A stretch of DNA of 37,092 nucleotides, from UHGV virus genome UHGV-0225063. The stretch is one strand, 5' to 3'. The notes beneath the pieces are model-generated. The model did not search any database. It had not been told where the DNA came from and saw only the letters and a list, made by a program, of their open reading frames with translations. The position numbers and the translations under genes are program-made. Origin of the DNA: a virus. Shown piece by piece: positions 27,894 through 35,541 of the stretch. The stretch's first letter is position 1, and the number at the start of each line of letters is the position of its first letter.

Positions 27894-28610
<717 letters not shown>

Positions 28611-28709
28611 TGTGACTGCATGTAATTTATCAAAAGCGCACATACCCTATGCTAAACAACTTACTGATTAATTTACTGAAAATCATTTATTAAAAAATAA
28701 GGATTGCCA

Positions 28710-29561
28710 ATGAATTTTTCGGAAGAAAAAAATAAAGATTTCCCCAAAAAAGTACAAACTTCGCTATTTGAAGTAGATTGTAATGACGGATGCTCATTTG
28801 TAGATGTCTTGAAGACATGCGAAAATTTCAAACAAAACTATGACTTTGAGTACTCTAACGACACTCGGGCAAGGATAAAAAGTCTAATAGTTAACGATGA
28901 CCAAATCTTTGCTGGGATAACACTCTATGAGCCCAAAGCTTTGGTCCCGGTAACTCCAAAAGATGGAGACCATAACGATTTGCAGGATGTAGATAATTAT
29001 GATAAATGCCATATATTCTTGCTTGCAACAGAAAGCAATATTCTAACAATTTTTCAACTATCAGGAACTCATCCTTTATCTAAGTTAAAAAAAATATTTA
29101 GCCTCATGAATATCAATGTGAATATTTCTGAGAAACTCAACAAAGATGCACTTGGCAAGATAATAAAAGATGGAATACGCTCCATCAGCCTAAGTATTGA
29201 AACAACAAAAGAAGATCTAGAAGAGGCAAAAGCAACATCATTAGGTATCACTGGAAAAGCTAAAGAAGCTTTATCAAGATTATTTGATAAAGAGCAAGAT
29301 GATGACAACTCTTTCTATGGGCTTCTGACTCTTGACAAGAGACATAACCCAAAACTCTTAAATATTGCGAACAAAAATCCAAGCCTGATCATTGATGAAT
29401 TATCGGAAGAGTTCTTCATCACAACATCAAAAGGCCAAGCGATCAAAAGCTCTGAAATCAAAACAAAAAAAGATTATTACACAAGAAAGTATGGCTCTAC
29501 CACCATAAAAGCGGAACACGCTAAGGAAATTCTTGAGCACTTCAAGGATTTCATACTATAA
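28710..29561 (+). CDS. Unknown soluble protein (~284 aa), first gene of the cassette in the rexA position
   Basis: ATG at 28710 with an AAGGA Shine-Dalgarno (the ORF-track start at 28704 is a TTG); about 28% GC over the first 60 nt; no motif I recognise. Confidence 0.6.
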   Translation: MNFSEEKNKDFPKKVQTSLFEVDCNDGCSFVDVLKTCENFKQNYDFEYSNDTRARIKSLIVNDDQIFAGITLYEPKALVPVTPKDGDHNDLQDVDNYDKCHIFLLATESNILTIFQLSGTHPLSKLKKIFSLMNINVNISEKLNKDALGKIIKDGIRSISLSIETTKEDLEEAKATSLGITGKAKEALSRLFDKEQDDDNSFYGLLTLDKRHNPKLLNIANKNPSLIIDELSEEFFITTSKGQAIKSSEIKTKKDYYTRKYGSTTIKAEHAKEILEHFKDFIL

Positions 29562-29598
29562 TGGAGGGTTGTACGTATAACCAAAGGGGGAGGTATGA

Positions 29599-30090
29599 AT
29601 GAGAGGTAAAGATTGGAGTTATATTTTTTCCATAATCTTTTTTATCTGCCTTTCTCTTGTATTAACTTATTATTTACATGATAAGGTTAGATATAACAAA
29701 GAGTTGCTTGGACTTGTGGCAAATATATTTTCAATATTAACAGGGTTTCTGTTACTTGTTATAACCACAAGTGGAGACGTAGCATCGTTTACAGAAGGTA
29801 AATCAAGATCAGAAAAGTATGCAACTAAGAGGAAATTCGAAATTCGGTTTTCTCGTTACATGATGCTTTTTTACCTCTATCTTACAGTCTTGTGCTTAAT
29901 ATTCTTCTACTACATGCTGCTGCCACCAGGAGACACCAGTAAAATCTTAGCAAGCAAGCCGCCTGTGACCAACCTGAGTCTGGTACTTGAGTTTATTATA
30001 TGCTGGCTAAGCATAATTTCATTTGGATGCTCTTTTTTCATACCAATAAAGCTGAAACAGATTTATAACGAAAAACTCAAGCAACAATAA
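29599..30090 (+). CDS. Unknown four-helix integral membrane protein (163 aa), second gene of the cassette in the rexB position
   Basis: GGGGGAGG Shine-Dalgarno before the ATG; four hydrophobic helices (about residues 8-27, 37-57, 87-108, 128-151); AT-rich. Confidence 0.6.
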   Translation: MRGKDWSYIFSIIFFICLSLVLTYYLHDKVRYNKELLGLVANIFSILTGFLLLVITTSGDVASFTEGKSRSEKYATKRKFEIRFSRYMMLFYLYLTVLCLIFFYYMLLPPGDTSKILASKPPVTNLSLVLEFIICWLSIISFGCSFFIPIKLKQIYNEKLKQQ

Positions 30091-30118
30091 CCCGGCCTCA
30101 GCGCCGGGTTTTCTTTGC
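30089..30118 (+). terminator. Intrinsic terminator (t-imm-like) ending the cI-cassette transcript
   Basis: AACCCGGC-ctcagc-GCCGGGTT followed by TTCTTTG; begins at the stop codon of the membrane-protein gene. Confidence 0.6.
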
Positions 30119-30268: not shown

Positions 30269-30331
30269 AACCATCTGCGGTGATGAGTTATCTCTAGCGG
30301 TGTTGACATAAATACCACTAGCGGTGATACT
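30269..30331 (+). promoter_or_regulatory. Left operator and pL: OL3 (30269-30285), OL2 (30289-30305), OL1 (30313-30329); -35 TTGACA (30303-30308), -10 GATACT (30326-30331)
   Basis: Sequence matches the lambda pL/OL region as remembered, with single-base differences. Confidence 0.8.
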
Positions 30332-30579: not shown

Positions 30580-30963
30580 ATGACACGCAGAACTCAGTTC
30601 AAAGGCAATTCACGTTCTCGTCGTCGTGAGCGTTTAAAGGTAAAGGCATTAGCTAACGGCGTACTGGCCCGCGAAGAAGCAATAAGTTCAGAAGTATTAC
30701 ACCGCCCTACTCTAAGCAGAGCGCAGATTCAGGCTAAAGGTACTCACAAAACGCCTGAGCGCATAGAAGACGCTAAGCCAATTAAGTTCATGGCACAGGA
30801 CGTGATCTGGCAACAGAAAGAATACAGACGCAATCTGGAGCGAGCGGCCATTGTGTACGCGAATGAGTTTGGACATAAGCAACCAGAAACTGGTGTATGT
30901 CTTCCAAACGTAGCTCTTTACGCGGCAGGCTATCGGAAATCAAAACAACTGACAGCGAGGTAA
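30580..30963 (+). CDS. N-like early antiterminator (arginine-rich motif; non-lambda, P22 gp24-like)
   Basis: 127 aa; N-terminal arginine-rich motif TRRTQFKGNSRSRRRERLK; first gene downstream of pL/nutL; unlike lambda N. Confidence 0.6.
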   Translation: MTRRTQFKGNSRSRRRERLKVKALANGVLAREEAISSEVLHRPTLSRAQIQAKGTHKTPERIEDAKPIKFMAQDVIWQQKEYRRNLERAAIVYANEFGHKQPETGVCLPNVALYAAGYRKSKQLTAR

Positions 30964-30965
30964 TT

Positions 30966-31265
30966 ATGGATTTAAGTAAATTAGAAAGCTCCTTGGAAGC
31001 ATCAGTAAAAAATTTTATATCAGTAATTGATGAAAAAACTGAAGATATTAAGAAAGCAACTATTGCCGAACTTATTCAAACAAGAGCCAGTACACTTGAA
31101 CATCTTCCTGATGATGTCCGGTCAGCGGCAATTAGCGTATATGTAACGGCACTAAGCAATAGTGAACCCCCAATTGATGAAGAATCAAGAGATATTCAGA
31201 AAAAACGGTTTGAGATGTTAGCCAGCAACATTATCGCTGGCTTTGCAAAGCTTACTTGTTGTTAG
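30966..31265 (+). CDS. Hypothetical acidic protein (99 aa)
   Basis: ATG 3 nt after the N stop with a GAGG Shine-Dalgarno; AT-rich; C-terminal CC dipeptide. Confidence 0.4.
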   Translation: MDLSKLESSLEASVKNFISVIDEKTEDIKKATIAELIQTRASTLEHLPDDVRSAAISVYVTALSNSEPPIDEESRDIQKKRFEMLASNIIAGFAKLTCC

Positions 31266-31434
31266 ATTCTTCCTGAACTTGCTCAAACCTTTCTTTCAAC
31301 TTGTCAAAGGCATTAATGAAAGCAGTTCCGCGATCGCTTGAGTTGTTGAATGCCCCAGCCTTTGCAAGCTCAAGTGCGACCTGATAGGCGGCATGAACTG
31401 GGTACAAAGTTACATCTACATTGTTGCTAGACAT
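31252..31434 (-). CDS. Hypothetical small protein (60 aa), antisense to the pL operon
   Basis: Start at MSSNN with an AAGGA Shine-Dalgarno; convergent with the preceding plus-strand gene; status uncertain. Confidence 0.3.
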   Translation of the reverse strand: MSSNNVDVTLYPVHAAYQVALELAKAGAFNNSSDRGTAFINAFDKLKERFEQVQEESNNK

Positions 31435-31445
31435 AGCATTTCCTT

Positions 31446-31494
31446 CTTTTGACTGTGGAAACAACAGTCTACCCATTTCCTTTGACTGTGGAAA
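31446..31494. repeat. Two direct copies of TTTGACTGTGGAAA spaced 33 bp apart
   Basis: Copies at 31446-31461 and 31479-31494, immediately upstream of the minus-strand small ORF. Confidence 0.4.
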
Positions 31495-31684
31495 GTGAAG
31501 GAACCACCGAGCCTGATGTGGTTAAAAGACAGGCACAATCTTTACTACCGCAATCCACTATTTAAGGTGATATACGGAAGAACAAGCAAACAAGATTCTC
31601 GTAGAACTACTGCAAAAAGCCAGCAATGGAATAGACGCGGCTGTTTCATTTAGCCAGGCACAGATTCCTGATGTTGTTCATCAG

Positions 31685-32023
31685 TTGCTGCTATGGAATA
31701 TGGTTGACAGTCTGATTAAAACATTAATAGCCATTCTAACAATCCCACTGGTTTTCTGGTTTATGAAGAAGCAGTGCCAAAGAGTTGAGACAGGTGAAAT
31801 CGGTGATGAAGGATATTCATGGGAGAAAGGAAATCCCAAATACAGGTCGACAATGGTTTGGGATAGCAAAGGTGATATTAATCTTCTTATCGTGCCATTG
31901 GTTGGAGTTTTGACTCTGTGGGGGGATTTTATTATTGGTGCAGTAACCAATATGACTTGGTTAAAAATTTGGCTGGCCCCAAAGCTTTACCTTATCGAAT
32001 ATGCAGCATCATTGGTTAATTAA
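31685..32023 (+). CDS. Small two-helix membrane protein (hypothetical)
   Basis: 112-aa ORF (the track start is a TTG; an ATG lies 5 codons in); two hydrophobic helices (LIKTLIAILTIPLVFWF and LLIVPLVGVLTLWGDFIIGAV); AT-rich. Confidence 0.45.
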   Translation: MLLWNMVDSLIKTLIAILTIPLVFWFMKKQCQRVETGEIGDEGYSWEKGNPKYRSTMVWDSKGDINLLIVPLVGVLTLWGDFIIGAVTNMTWLKIWLAPKLYLIEYAASLVN

Positions 32024-32063
32024 TTTCAGGCCGCATAATCGGCCTTTATTTTTAAGGAGACAT

Positions 32064-32306
32064 ATGAAAATCAAAACTATGGGCGCAAGCCCATTAAGTG
32101 GTCGTATTTTTCAAGGAACATTAAACACTGAAAAAGGAATGTGGGTGGGAAAGAAAGAAGATGTAACCGAACAGGCAGTTAAGGCAGTAGCTGAACACAT
32201 GATGATAAAAGACCAGAAATATGCATACGGAACGAAGGATGGCAAATGGCTGATAATAAGCCATCAAGTGGTTGATAAATTACCAGAAGAGTTTGTTGCT
32301 GGTTAA
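32064..32306 (+). CDS. Hypothetical small protein (80 aa)
   Basis: ATG preceded by an AAGGAG Shine-Dalgarno; start taken at MKIKT within ORF 32001..32306. Confidence 0.45.
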   Translation: MKIKTMGASPLSGRIFQGTLNTEKGMWVGKKEDVTEQAVKAVAEHMMIKDQKYAYGTKDGKWLIISHQVVDKLPEEFVAG

Positions 32307-32363
32307 ATTTGCTTTGGAATAAGCAACAGAATAAACACTGCACTGAATTATTTGAGGTGAGAT

Positions 32364-32834
32364 ATGACAAAATCATGGAGCGTACCTTTTCCTGAATCAG
32401 AAACTGAACATGATGGAATGCCTGTTTTCTGGAGATTCCAGGCGACAGTTGAAGAAGATGGAATCAAAATATTCGCACTTCAATATATAGCTTTTCATCA
32501 GACAGAGCATTATGCATGGTTGGTTCCTGCGCATTGGATTGTTAATTTTAAACCAGCACCAAATCAGTGGTTACAGGAATGGAAACAAAGGAGAAATAGA
32601 TATGCAATTAAGAAAGTAGCAAAAAATGCAGAAAGATCTTTTGCATTCCCGACGAAGAAACTTGCCATTGAAAGTTTATTGCGCCGGAAGAAATACCATT
32701 TGATGAGAATCAAACAAGATTTGGCTGTTGTATCAACTCTTGTTGATGGGATGAAGAATATTGATACATCAACACCAGATATTGAATATAACTTTGGACA
32801 CAACCAAGAAACAGAAAACTGGGTGTTTTATTAG
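32364..32834 (+). CDS. Hypothetical protein (156 aa)
   Basis: ATG preceded by a GAGGTG Shine-Dalgarno; no recognisable motif. Confidence 0.5.
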   Translation: MTKSWSVPFPESETEHDGMPVFWRFQATVEEDGIKIFALQYIAFHQTEHYAWLVPAHWIVNFKPAPNQWLQEWKQRRNRYAIKKVAKNAERSFAFPTKKLAIESLLRRKKYHLMRIKQDLAVVSTLVDGMKNIDTSTPDIEYNFGHNQETENWVFY

Positions 32835-32938
32835 TACGAATAAGCACTGTGTATTCATTCCAACGAGTGAATACACGGAGCAATGTCGCTCGTAACTAAA
32901 CAGGAGCCGACTTGTTCTGATTATTGGAAATCTTCTTT

Positions 32939-32965
32939 GCCCTCCAAGATGAGGGCGATTTTTTA
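32939..32965 (+). terminator. Intrinsic terminator-like hairpin upstream of ea10
   Basis: GCCCTC-caagat-GAGGGC followed by GATTTTTTAT. Confidence 0.45.
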
Positions 32966-32984
32966 TCTGTGAGGATATGAACAG

Positions 32985-33353
32985 ATGTCAAACATCAAAA
33001 AATACATCATTGATTACGACTGGAAAGCATCAATAGAAATTGAAATCGACCATGACGTAATGACAGAGGAAAAACTTCACCAGATTAATAATTTCTGGTC
33101 AGACTCTGAATACCGACTCAATAAACACGGCTCTGTATTAAATGCTGTATTAATCATGCTGGCGCAACATGCTCTGCTTATAGCAATTTCAAGCGACTTA
33201 AATGCATATGGTGTTGTGTGTGAGTTCGACTGGAATGATGGAAATGGTCAGGAAGGATGGCCTCCAATGGATGGTAGCGAAGGAATAAGAATTACCGATA
33301 TCGATACATCAGGAATATTTGATTCAGATGATATGACTATCAAAGCCGCCTGA
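32985..33353 (+). CDS. ea10: Ea10-like protein
   Basis: 122 aa; same size and position as lambda ea10 (between the N-proximal genes and cIII); sequence appears lambda-like from memory. Confidence 0.65.
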   Translation: MSNIKKYIIDYDWKASIEIEIDHDVMTEEKLHQINNFWSDSEYRLNKHGSVLNAVLIMLAQHALLIAISSDLNAYGVVCEFDWNDGNGQEGWPPMDGSEGIRITDIDTSGIFDSDDMTIKAA

Positions 33354-33425
33354 GCGCGGCGTTACCGCATACCAATAACGCTTCACTCGAGGCGTTTTTC
33401 GTTATGTATAAATAAGGAGCACACC

Positions 33426-33590
33426 ATGCAATATGCCATTGCAGGGTGGCCTGTTGCTGGCTGCCCTTCCGAATCTTTACTTGAACGAATCACCCGTAAA
33501 TTACGTGACGGATGGAAACGCCTTATCGACATACTTAATCAGCCAGGAGTCCCAAAAAATGGATCAAACACTTATGGCTATCCAGACTAA
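33426..33590 (+). CDS. cIII: CIII (FtsH inhibitor that stabilises CII)
   Basis: 54-aa ORF translated by hand: [54 protein letters not shown], matching lambda CIII as recalled; below the ORF-track length cutoff. Confidence 0.85.
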   Translation: MQYAIAGWPVAGCPSESLLERITRKLRDGWKRLIDILNQPGVPKNGSNTYGYPD

Positions 33591-33702
33591 ATTCACTATC
33601 GCCACTTTTATTGGCGATGAAAAGATGTTTCGTGAGGCCGTCGACGCTTATAAAAAATGGATATTAATACTGAAACTGAGATCAAGCAAAAGCATTCACT
33701 AA
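33559..33702 (+). CDS. kil: Kil (host cell-division inhibitor)
   Basis: 47 aa from the internal Met of ORF 33433..33702: [47 protein letters not shown], matching lambda Kil as recalled. Confidence 0.8.
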
Positions 33703-34073
33703 CCCCCTTTCCTGTTTTCCTAATCAGCCCGGCATTTCGCGGGCGATATTTTCACAGCTATTTCAGGAGTTCAGCCATGAACGCTTATTACATTCAGGAT
33801 CGTCTTGAGGCTCAGAGCTGGACGCGTCACTACCAGCAGCTCGCCCGTGAAGAGAAAGAGGCAGAACTGGCAGACGACATGGAAAAAAGCCTGCCCCAGC
33901 ACCTGTTTGAATCGCTATGCATCGATCATTTGCAACGCCACGGGGCCAGCAAAAAAGCCATTACCCGTGCGTTTGATGACGATGTTGAGTTTCAGGAGCG
34001 CATGGCAGAACACATCCGGTACATGGTTGAAACCATTGCTCACCACCAGGTTGATATTGATTCAGAGGTATAA
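33657..34073 (+). CDS. gam: Gam (RecBCD inhibitor)
   Basis: 138 aa, near-identical to lambda Gam (long form) as recalled. Confidence 0.95.
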
Positions 34074-34078
34074 AACGG

Positions 34079-34864
34079 ATGAGTACAGCACTCGCAACGC
34101 TGGCTGGGAAGCTGGCTGAACGTGTCGGCATGGATTCTGTCGACCCACAGGAACTGATCACCACTCTTCGCCAGACGGCATTTAAAGGTGATGCCAGCGA
34201 TGCGCAGTTCATCGCATTGTTGATCGTCGCCAACCAGTACGGCCTTAATCCGTGGACGAAAGAAATTTACGCCTTCCCTGACAAGCAGAACGGCATCGTT
34301 CCGGTGGTGGGCGTTGATGGCTGGTCCCGTATCATCAATGAAAACCAGCAGTTTGATGGCATGGACTTTGAGCAGGACAATGAATCATGTACATGCCGGA
34401 TTTACCGCAAGGACCGTAATCATCCGATCTGCGTTACCGAGTGGATGGATGAATGCCGCCGCGAACCATTCAAAACCCGCGAAGGCAGAGAAATCACCGG
34501 ACCGTGGCAGTCGCATCCCAAACGGATGTTACGGCATAAAGCCATGATTCAGTGTGCCCGTCTGGCCTTCGGATTTGCTGGTATCTATGACAAGGATGAA
34601 GCCGAGCGCATTGTCGAAAATACTGCATACACTGCAGAACGTCAGCCGGAACGCGACATCACTCCGGTTAACGATGAAACCATGCAGGAGATTAACACTC
34701 TGCTGATCGCCCTGGATAAAACATGGGATGACGACTTATTGCCGCTCTGTTCCCAGATATTTCGCCGCGACATTCGCGCATCGTCAGAACTGACACAGGC
34801 CGAAGCAGTGAAAGCTCTTGGATTCCTGAAACAGAAAGCCACTGAGCAGAAGGTGGCAGCATGA
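34079..34864 (+). CDS. bet: Bet (Red-beta single-strand annealing protein)
   Basis: 261 aa, near-identical to lambda Bet as recalled. Confidence 0.95.
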
Positions 34865-35541
34865 CACCGGACATTATCCTGCAGCGTACCGGGATCGACG
34901 TGAGAGCTGTCGAACAGGGGGATGATGCATGGCACAAATTACGGCTCGGCGTCATCACCGCTTCAGAAGTTCACAACGTGATAGCAAAGCCCCGCTCAGG
35001 AAAGAAGTGGCCTGACATGAAAATGTCCTACTTCCACACCCTGCTGGCTGAGGTTTGCACCGGTGTGGCTCCGGAAGTTAATGCTAAGGCGCTGGCCTGG
35101 GGAAAACAGTACGAGAACGACGCCAGAGCCCTGTTTGAGTTTACTTCCGGCGTGAATGTTACTGAATCCCCGATCATCTATCGCGACGAAAGTATGCGCA
35201 CCGCCTGCTCTCCCGATGGTTTATGCAGTGACGGCAACGGCCTTGAACTGAAATGCCCGTTTACCTCCCGGGATTTCATGAAATTCCGGCTCGGTGGTTT
35301 CGAGGCCATAAAGTCAGCTTACATGGCCCAGGTGCAGTACAGCATGTGGGTGACGCGAAAAGATGCCTGGTACTTTGCCAACTATGACCCACGAATGAAG
35401 CGTGAAGGCCTGCATTATGTCGTGGTTGAGCGGGATGAAAATTACATGGCGAGTTTTGACGAGATGGTGCCGGAGTTCATCGAAAAAATGGACGAGGCAC
35501 TGGCTGAAATTGGTTTTGTATTTGGGGAGCAATGGCGATGA
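34861..35541 (+). CDS. exo: Exo (Red-alpha 5'-3' exonuclease)
   Basis: 226 aa, near-identical to lambda Exo as recalled. Confidence 0.95.

Follow-up and report, generated by a model that had tools for sequence, protein, structure and literature searches.

The early-left region of the virus genome UHGV-0225063 (37,092 nucleotides [nt], called the window here) contains a block of five open reading frames (ORFs) between an N-like gene and ea10 (positions 30966 to 32965). The plus strand of the window corresponds to lambda's leftward (pL) direction, and the block corresponds to the part of a lambda-like prophage's early-left operon where accessory genes vary. Here, we report that its first two ORFs, a convergent pair coding for proteins of 99 and 60 amino acids (aa; Y99 and X60), occupy the slot of sieB in lambda and P22, and that the pair keeps a P22-type antisense control region and carries different, uncharacterised proteins. 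Features of the interval are listed in Table 1.

Table 1. Features of the N-to-ea10 interval and its nearest neighbours, in window positions
Feature	Position	Strand	Basis or remark
Promoter TTGACA-17-GATACT	30303-30331	+	
N-like gene	30580-30963	+	Pfam N_peptide
Y99, 99-aa acidic helical protein	30966-31265	+	ORF
X60, 60-aa helix-loop-helix protein	31252-31434	-	ORF; position and orientation of lambda sieB
Sas-like antisense RNA region	31430-31551	+ (pL strand)	Homology to P22 sas
X60 leader and putative promoter	31435-31494	-	Conservation
Two direct repeats TTTGACTGTGGAAA	31448-31461 and 31481-31494		Flank the putative -10
Putative X60 promoter: -35 TTTCCA, 17-nt spacer, -10 TAGACT	31494-31489 (-35), 31471-31466 (-10)	-	
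H-type pseudoknot (predicted)	31502-31534	+	3' domain of the sas-like RNA
Two-transmembrane protein gene, 149 codons (phrog_3054)	31574-32023	+	Start ATG mutated to ACG
Terminator-like hairpin and T-run	32028-32045	+	-9.7 kcal/mol; 5 nt past the stop of the membrane protein gene
DUF7446 protein, 80 aa (phrog_1578)	32064-32306	+	Pfam PF24233
156-aa protein, 933W L0079 family (phrog_1636)	32364-32834	+	
Lambda-conserved spacer upstream of ea10	32844-32966	+	123 bp
ea10	32985-33353	+	DUF2528
cIII thermosensor	33413-33471		Rfam Lambda_thermo, 88.5 bits, E 2e-21

A preliminary description of the sequence had presented the interval as one AT-rich block of five ORFs at 27-35% GC, none of them recognisable, standing where lambda has ral and sieB. 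All five ORFs were found at the positions given there in the ORF list of the window, both flanking genes were confirmed with Pfam, and comparison with lambdoid phages bore out the location in the variable N-to-ea10 interval. The GC content is higher than had been described (39.1% for the block against 48.4% for the whole window; 36.3-43.2% per ORF; 34-45% in 300-bp windows), only the first 100 bp falling to 26%. Neither is the block a unit. BLAST against three E. coli prophages (L001-L003) and 80 IMG/VR loci placed homology breakpoints at 31252, 31441, 31501/31564, 32053, 32313, and 32844, and because these are sharp and the arrangements are reshuffled in relatives, the block resolves into four cassettes: the 99/60-aa pair, the membrane protein gene with its own terminator-like hairpin, the DUF7446 gene, and the L0079-type gene. 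The four recombine independently at linkers conserved in lambda and P22 and occur in other combinations elsewhere. In most relatives the membrane protein cassette (31564-32053) directly adjoins the terminator spacer before ea10; in some the 156-aa cassette follows it, and in others DUF7446 and the 156-aa gene follow N. The IMG/VR contig L014 has 100% identity to the window over 31442-34500 and a different left part. In E. coli, close relatives are widespread; of the 50,697 phage records and 5,426 complete E. coli genomes searched, none covered as much as 80% of the block. Viewed simply as five hypothetical proteins, the block represents ordinary lambdoid mosaicism.

The replacement of ral and sieB was upheld. 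Related prophages that have ral carry it in place of the block's cassettes, and no Pfam or NCBIfam model of the Ral antirestriction protein or of SieB matched any of the five ORFs. BLASTP of X60, Y99, and the membrane protein against SieB of lambda and P22 gave either no match or E>30, so that the possibility, raised in the preliminary description, of diverged ral or sieB genes found no match behind it. A lack of conservation had been named there as the other finding that would tell against its view; the genes are conserved in relatives, and this objection therefore falls away. PADLOC 2.0 defence models gave two chance-level matches only to the block's proteins (E 0.009 and 0.018).

The 99/60-aa pair is conserved as an arrangement. 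The ATG of Y99 lies 2 nt past the N stop, with a GAGG Shine-Dalgarno sequence inside the 3' end of N; X60 faces it from the minus strand, convergent as first described, and the two 3' ends overlap by 14 nt. In every context examined, Y99 directly follows N, X60 converges on it, and the 14-nt overlap is identical. This invariant geometry was seen in at least 17 prophage contexts (among them the window, L007-L013, L095, L121, and L134-L139); those inspected come from E. coli MS 21-1, from Citrobacter and Edwardsiella, from a pair of IMG/VR contigs, and from six other contigs of E. coli or metagenomes. Homologues of Y99 form 22 clusters in prophages of Escherichia, Shigella, Salmonella, Citrobacter, and Edwardsiella; those of X60 form nine (72-98% identity), all 60 aa long save one of 62 aa. 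The ratio of nonsynonymous to synonymous substitution rates (dN/dS) is 0.05-0.09 for X60 and 0.13-0.31 for Y99, and both genes are under purifying selection. The two families diverge in parallel, Y identities of 89, 72, and 61-64% pairing with X identities of 100, 90, and 80-85%.

Y99 is net acidic, as had been noticed (17 D+E against 12 K+R), and had no Pfam, PHROG, NCBIfam, or PADLOC match; neither protein had a tblastn match in the phage collection. That the ORFs were unrecognisable thus held for these two; of the rest, the 80-aa protein belongs to DUF7446, and three ORFs match PHROGs (1636, 1578, and 3054, all annotated as of unknown function). A profile of X60 found only 12 matches at E<=1e-3 (six small proteins) among 1.84 billion representatives. 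X60 is net acidic, without a membrane segment or internal Met, and its AlphaFold2 (AF2) model is a plain helical hairpin of two helices (predicted local distance difference test score [pLDDT], 66), for which Foldseek returned generic helical hairpins only, at E>2. A ribbon-helix-helix assignment for X60 was rejected (no N-terminal strand in the AF2 model, acidic, no family or PDB profile match), as was the idea that the 99-aa ORF is a truncated 150-aa gene, the 99-aa form and the 14-nt overlap being kept from E. coli to Edwardsiella. Tested as a type II toxin-antitoxin system, the pair proved convergent rather than co-directional and gave a sub-threshold VapB match (14 bits against a cut-off of 60). 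A variant module occurs in E. coli F5505-C1 (L002, 2501-3152) and at about 12 loci of IMG/VR: residues 1-96 of Y99 continue there into another tail of 40-55 residues, which is antisense to a different 84-aa minus-strand ORF with an overlap of 60-100 nt; the annotation pipeline PGAP calls just the plus-strand gene. A weak terminator-like hairpin on the minus strand (31000-30988), about 250 nt past the X60 stop and within the 5' end of Y99, may be the end of the minus-strand transcript.

In lambda, sieB (34482-35036, plus strand of that genome) lies between N and ral, and in P22 it lies between gene 24 (P22's N) and ral, in both cases opposite to pL. X60 has the same position, strand, and upstream element. 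The element is a 52-bp piece (31501-31553) that lambda, P22, and the window have in common, with a one-base difference to P22; it stands directly upstream of sieB in the two phages and of X60 here. Two copies of CTGTAGGGGT lie in lambda and P22 at the places of the window's TTTGACTGTGGAAA copies, and the pattern TAnnnT is kept in all leader variants, including the TAAACT of lambda and P22. An AAGGA Shine-Dalgarno sequence precedes the X60 ATG at 31434. Conservation, together with earlier work on P22, suggests that TTTCCA-17-TAGACT is a weak promoter for the minus-strand gene. A natural promoter-deletion variant of the pair occurs in E. coli GCA_018017965.1 (L137, 2470-2520), where a single TTTGACTGTGGAAA copy is present and deletion of the 33 bp that separate the repeats has removed the putative -10.

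The leader is also the template of an antisense RNA in P22. The 127-nt sequence of sas given in a 2026 small-RNA study (PMC13397905, Table 2) maps to the pL strand of the P22 locus (L005, 1725-1851). It begins 4 nt inside the sieB start codon, spans the leader, and ends where the invariant piece ends. The homologous region of the window is complementary to the X60 start codon, Shine-Dalgarno sequence, and 5' untranslated region. Over 31440-31551, 91 of 105 ungapped columns are identical to P22 sas, the last 51 nt with one difference. A covariance model (R1) matched the 3' domain with 61 bits (E 2e-11) and also matches P22 and lambda; an Rfam search of the window gave no family at this region.

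Two stems are predicted in the 3' domain, stem I pairing 31502-31507 with 31518-31523 and stem II pairing 31511-31515 with 31530-31534. Their interleaved order on the pL strand (Ia, L1 of 1-3 nt, IIa, L2 of usually 0-2 nt, Ib, an A-rich L3 of 5-9 nt, IIb) is that of a classical H-type pseudoknot. Both stems keep complementarity in the 19 sequence variants, through 11 stem-I haplotypes (AACCAC/GTGGTT, CCACG/CGTGG, AACCCGC/GCGGGTT, CCCTG/CAGGG, CGCG/CGCG, and TCACG/CGTGA among the pairs) and four stem-II haplotypes (with GCCTG/CAGGC and GCCGGG/CCCGGC). Stem II is also recovered by RNAalifold, one of its pairs showing 8 double-sided changes. In the formal pair count 87% of pairs were formed, against 77% in shuffled and 23-45% in slid controls, and the covariation score was 0.26, against 0.10 in shuffles (reached by 0 of 500). 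Stem I is undercounted there because MAFFT and cmalign leave two sequence types, half of the sequences, one column out of register at this stem; it was judged instead from an anchor-based table with a non-cognate control, in which cognate halves average 5.6-bp helices and non-cognate halves 3.5 bp. A stable nested RNA fold of the leader was rejected on either strand (z-scores of -0.4 to -1.9), with covariation confined to the pseudoknot stems.

The double-repeat leader was found in 33 IMG/VR contigs and in the species genomes of Izhakiella, Trabulsiella, Pantoea, Erwinia, and Leclercia. An ATG lies 8-15 nt past each leader and starts a small ORF, of which there are at least eight types between 54 and 95 aa long (54, 57, 60, 67-71, 80, 84, 92-94, and 95 aa), none of which had a Pfam family above threshold or a match to known defence models. 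Most cargo types face a convergent ORF on the pL strand that reaches or overlaps the 3' end of the small gene. Remote homology links X60 with the 54- and 57-aa cargos (X54 and X57; z 5.8 and 19.6) and likewise links the partners of the three, Y99, Y97, and Y56 (z 6.5 and 11.9; BLASTP E 2e-4). The three small proteins have the motif AA(Y/Q)Q..(L/V)E(L/M)(V/I)(K/R)AG in common, and the X60 profile also finds a PHEAAQQ-type protein that bridges the two motif types. In a literature search, no paper was found in which the sieB slot is named as a hotspot.

Other cargos behind the leader differ more. In three IMG/VR contigs (L112, L116, and L123), a 92-94-aa cargo (MAIYTVRVVLRGAEWDTYEKLHESM) faces a convergent protein of 52-58 aa that contains IADEEGISFADAI and looks, from its sequence, like a ribbon-helix-helix antitoxin; neither has a Pfam match. 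Another contig (L114) carries a 95-aa Cys-rich cargo whose N-terminal part matches Pfam Lar_restr_allev weakly (E 0.006, sub-threshold). In that contig and at the loci of the 71-aa cargo (L096 and others), the upstream pL-strand gene is a helix-turn-helix-type regulator in the place of N, so the leader also travels in phages that are not of the N type.

The second cassette fills the ral slot. The preliminary description had recognised a two-helix membrane protein here; its two hydrophobic segments are present (predicted transmembrane, at about residues 42-65 and 102-125 in full-length numbering), and its extent was wrong, the 107-112-aa ORF (from TTG 31685 or ATG 31700, without a Shine-Dalgarno sequence, at the first transmembrane segment) being the tail of a 149-codon frame open from 31571. 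The frame matches phrog_3054 (E 9e-62) from residue 3 of the read-through, over profile positions 2-136 of 137. An E. coli relative (L001) has an annotated 149-aa coding sequence that begins ATG-GAA-GAA; the window has ACG-GAA-GAA, with ACG at 31574-31576 and the AAGGTG Shine-Dalgarno sequence intact. Among 80 IMG/VR relatives, 73 have ATG in the homologous linker, two more have ATG in a different upstream context, and only L014 shares the ACG. ACG is a very poor initiator in E. coli, and the gene is for this reason probably silent or strongly attenuated here. The phrog_3054 family is found in virulent phages as well (phi92-like myoviruses and phages of Vibrio and Pseudomonas). The hairpin behind the gene marks the boundary of the cassette, at 32053. 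The opening codons of the ral-slot gene, ATG-GAA-GAA, are part of the conserved linker (31571-31582); in P22 (L005, 1875-1961) this start belongs to an acidic ORF of 28 codons that lies upstream of ral, and the ACG mutation of the window falls within the linker shared with P22.

The third and fourth cassettes are single genes. The 80-aa protein matches PF24233 with 98.2 bits (gathering cut-off, 24.1) over profile positions 2-70 of 70 and has no PDB relative; DUF7446 occurs in 283 phage records, mostly of virulent Ackermannviridae (Kuttervirus and Limestonevirus), together with lambdoid phages. The 156-aa protein matches phrog_1636 over its whole length (E 2.7e-112, positions 1-156 of 156), and its gene has 98% DNA identity to 933W and other Shiga toxin (Stx) phages. 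Its family forms 33 clusters, from Enterobacterales prophages only, with identities down to 56% and 40 invariant columns. An AF2 model from a 20-sequence alignment was poor (pLDDT 60), and Foldseek found no fold match (best E 1.9, TM-score 0.1-0.2). A literature search found no papers on DUF7446 or L0079.

The block ends at lambda's own terminator region before ea10. Both hairpins that had been counted towards its novelty fold as described, the perfect 9-bp stem as part of a 14-pair hairpin (32847-32878; -18.8 kcal/mol, z -6.3) and the terminator-like one at 32937-32958, followed by a T-run (-12.9 kcal/mol; an intrinsic terminator, annotated as rho-independent in mEp234). They are nonetheless ordinary lambda features, because the spacer that contains them is almost identical to the ral-ea10 spacer of lambda and to 933W and mEp234. 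Beyond ea10 and the cIII thermosensor, whose Lambda_thermo match confirms a lambda-type cIII leader in the window, follow kil, gam, and bet. On the other side of pL, the rexA/rexB slot (28704-30110), between the cI-like repressor (27897-28610) and pL, holds two AT-rich genes (34% GC), coding for a 285-aa protein (phrog_23561; no Pfam or PADLOC match) and a hydrophobic 163-aa protein, and is closed by a bidirectional terminator-like hairpin (30089-30110). These two may be a lysogen-expressed defence pair.

Roles in exclusion or host takeover, as proposed in the preliminary description, would be a sensible expectation for the genes of the block. From where they occur, cassettes two to four are best regarded as early accessory proteins driven by pL; as they occur in virulent or Stx phages, host-takeover or counter-defence functions seem more likely for them than functions in lysogeny. 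For anti-restriction specifically, which had also been suggested, the analysis of these three cassettes produced no supporting evidence.

The sequence comparisons show the mosaic structure, the conserved pairing, the homology of slot and leader to sieB and sas, the covarying structure, and the lost start codon of the membrane protein gene; the account of the 99/60-aa pair that follows goes beyond these and is proposed. P22 and lambda reportedly have a sieB-esc-sas superinfection exclusion cassette (Ranade and Poteete, in 1993). sieB has a promoter, its product SieB aborts the lytic growth of superinfecting phages, and Esc is an inhibitor made from an in-frame internal start of sieB. On the reading that we favour, X60 and Y99 would belong to a SieB/Esc/sas-like exclusion-and-immunity module. 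Y99 would be read from pL directly after N and X60 from the opposite strand, from a weak sigma-70 promoter homologous to that of lambda and P22 sieB; given this homology, X60 is probably made in the lysogen, where it may act as a prophage-expressed factor that harms incoming phages. Firing of pL, whether on induction or when a phage with the same module infects, would drive transcription antisense across X60 and yield a sas-type RNA, with a pseudoknotted 3' domain, over the X60 Shine-Dalgarno sequence and start codon. This RNA would shut off X60, and Y99 may neutralise X60 protein already made. A small protein made by the prophage would thus block incoming phages, and the phage's own early transcription would cancel the block through an antisense RNA and a partner protein.

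Several points weigh against this account. X60 is soluble, has no similarity to SieB, and has no internal Met for an Esc-like product, so the effector logic cannot simply be copied from P22. Residues 1-96 of Y99 also occur, at about 90% identity, beside the unrelated 84-aa minus-strand ORF, which argues against Y99 as a specific protein antidote to X60. X60 has no Pfam, PADLOC, or PDB relative, and Y99 likewise. The putative X60 promoter agrees with the consensus at 8 of 12 positions, and a promoter scanner gives no call. Wobble pairs do not settle the strand of the pseudoknot, and pL is favoured only by the loop geometry and the published RNA. The roles proposed for cassettes two to four, finally, are drawn from distribution and from nothing else. 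Because X60 is unlike SieB and lacks an Esc start, and because the core of Y99 occurs beside another ORF, the full mechanism is put forward tentatively, as a possibility that falls somewhat short of being probable. More doubtful is its extension, in which the sieB leader (promoter and pseudoknotted sas-type RNA) is a portable socket that in enterobacterial prophages takes up many unrelated small genes, most of them with a convergent partner on the pL strand, and X60/Y99 and the related 54/97-aa and 57/56-aa pairs are undescribed exclusion-and-immunity modules.

All five ORFs might instead be ordinary early-lytic accessory genes, for anti-restriction or host takeover; the minus-strand ORF and its leader would then play no particular part in lysogeny, the leader being kept only as a recombination linker. 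The interval is the classical home of ral and other pL accessory genes, cassettes two to four are found in virulent or Stx phages, and the conserved pieces coincide with recombination breakpoints. Yet pL cannot express X60, which lies on the opposite strand. A linker kept for recombination would not need the compensatory base-pair changes seen here; the leader keeps TAnnnT, a Shine-Dalgarno sequence, and an ATG at a fixed 8-15 nt before eight unrelated cargos; P22 makes an RNA from exactly this sequence (PMC13397905), and no Ral-type model matches in the block. We consider this alternative unlikely. Less likely still is a role of X60 as a small DNA- or protein-binding regulator that, together with convergent transcription, tunes pL/N expression or the stability of the lysogen, with Y99 as an unrelated early protein. 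A soluble 60-aa helix-loop-helix protein under very strong purifying selection would suit it, as would two direct repeats flanking a putative -10 (the usual layout of an operator pair), X60 transcription that runs into Y99 and N, and a Y99 core that also pairs with a different minus-strand ORF. Since the same repeats precede eight unrelated cargos, however, they are not X60-specific operators; X60 is net acidic, its model has no ribbon-helix-helix strand, no DNA-binding family matches it, and the X and Y families diverge in parallel. That the block is decaying cargo, its ORFs functionless remnants in a defective prophage, is improbable: the lost start codon of the membrane protein gene, one relative (L137) with the putative X60 promoter deleted, and the rarity of the exact cassette combination stand against the low dN/dS of X60 and Y99, 40 invariant columns in the 156-aa family across genera, an intact frame and good Shine-Dalgarno sequence for every gene, and a contig (L014) 100% identical over 3 kb, with close relatives widespread in E. 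coli.

To our knowledge, sieB/esc/sas is the only well-studied antisense-controlled exclusion cassette of lambdoid phages, and it appears to be one instance of a wider design. In Escherichia, Citrobacter, Edwardsiella, Pantoea, Erwinia, and other genera, at least eight different small cargos stand behind this conserved leader and its antisense RNA, in which a pseudoknot covaries. Cargos of 54-95 aa, which can be cloned with their native leader, are cheap candidates for new prophage exclusion or regulatory functions, and the X60/Y99 pair in the sieB slot is worth an experiment. The leader also provides a defined RNA element, absent from Rfam, that could be added to annotation pipelines. The membrane protein gene is a natural start-codon knockout of a widespread phage protein and hints at a cost to the lysogen.

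Compared with sieB-esc-sas of P22 and lambda, the module in the window is alike in its slot between N (or 24) and ral, its orientation opposite to pL, its 52-bp element, and its leader, with two direct repeats around TAnnnT followed by a Shine-Dalgarno sequence and ATG. As with P22 sas, the start codon of the minus-strand gene lies under an antisense region of the pL strand, which is predicted here from the sequence. Unlike SieB, X60 is an unrelated, soluble protein of 60 aa with no Esc-like internal start; the repeats are TTTGACTGTGGAAA here and CTGTAGGGGT in lambda and P22, and where the pL strand of these phages carries only the antisense of sieB, that of the window has the protein gene Y99. 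At the ral slot, the membrane protein cassette has the same conserved linker, Shine-Dalgarno context, and first codons as the gene behind the sieB leader in P22 and lambda, and the interval ends at the same terminator spacer before ea10; in contrast to lambda, there is no Ral homologue, and three unrelated cassettes, the first without a start codon, take the place of one. The early-left region of 933W, like that of many Stx phages, is 98-99% identical in N, the 156-aa gene, and ea10, but L0079 directly follows N in 933W, whereas the window has about 1.4 kb of extra cassettes (the two aligned pieces make up 50% of the query). Prophage moron or defence hotspots, such as those of P2 and P4 (PMC9122126), share conserved flanks and variable small cargo that has its own promoter and is read against the phage operon. 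The cargo of the type found in the window differs from theirs in its size of 54-95 aa and in matching no defence model, and also in its architecture, most cargos being paired with a convergent gene of the phage operon and all of them standing under a shared antisense-RNA leader.

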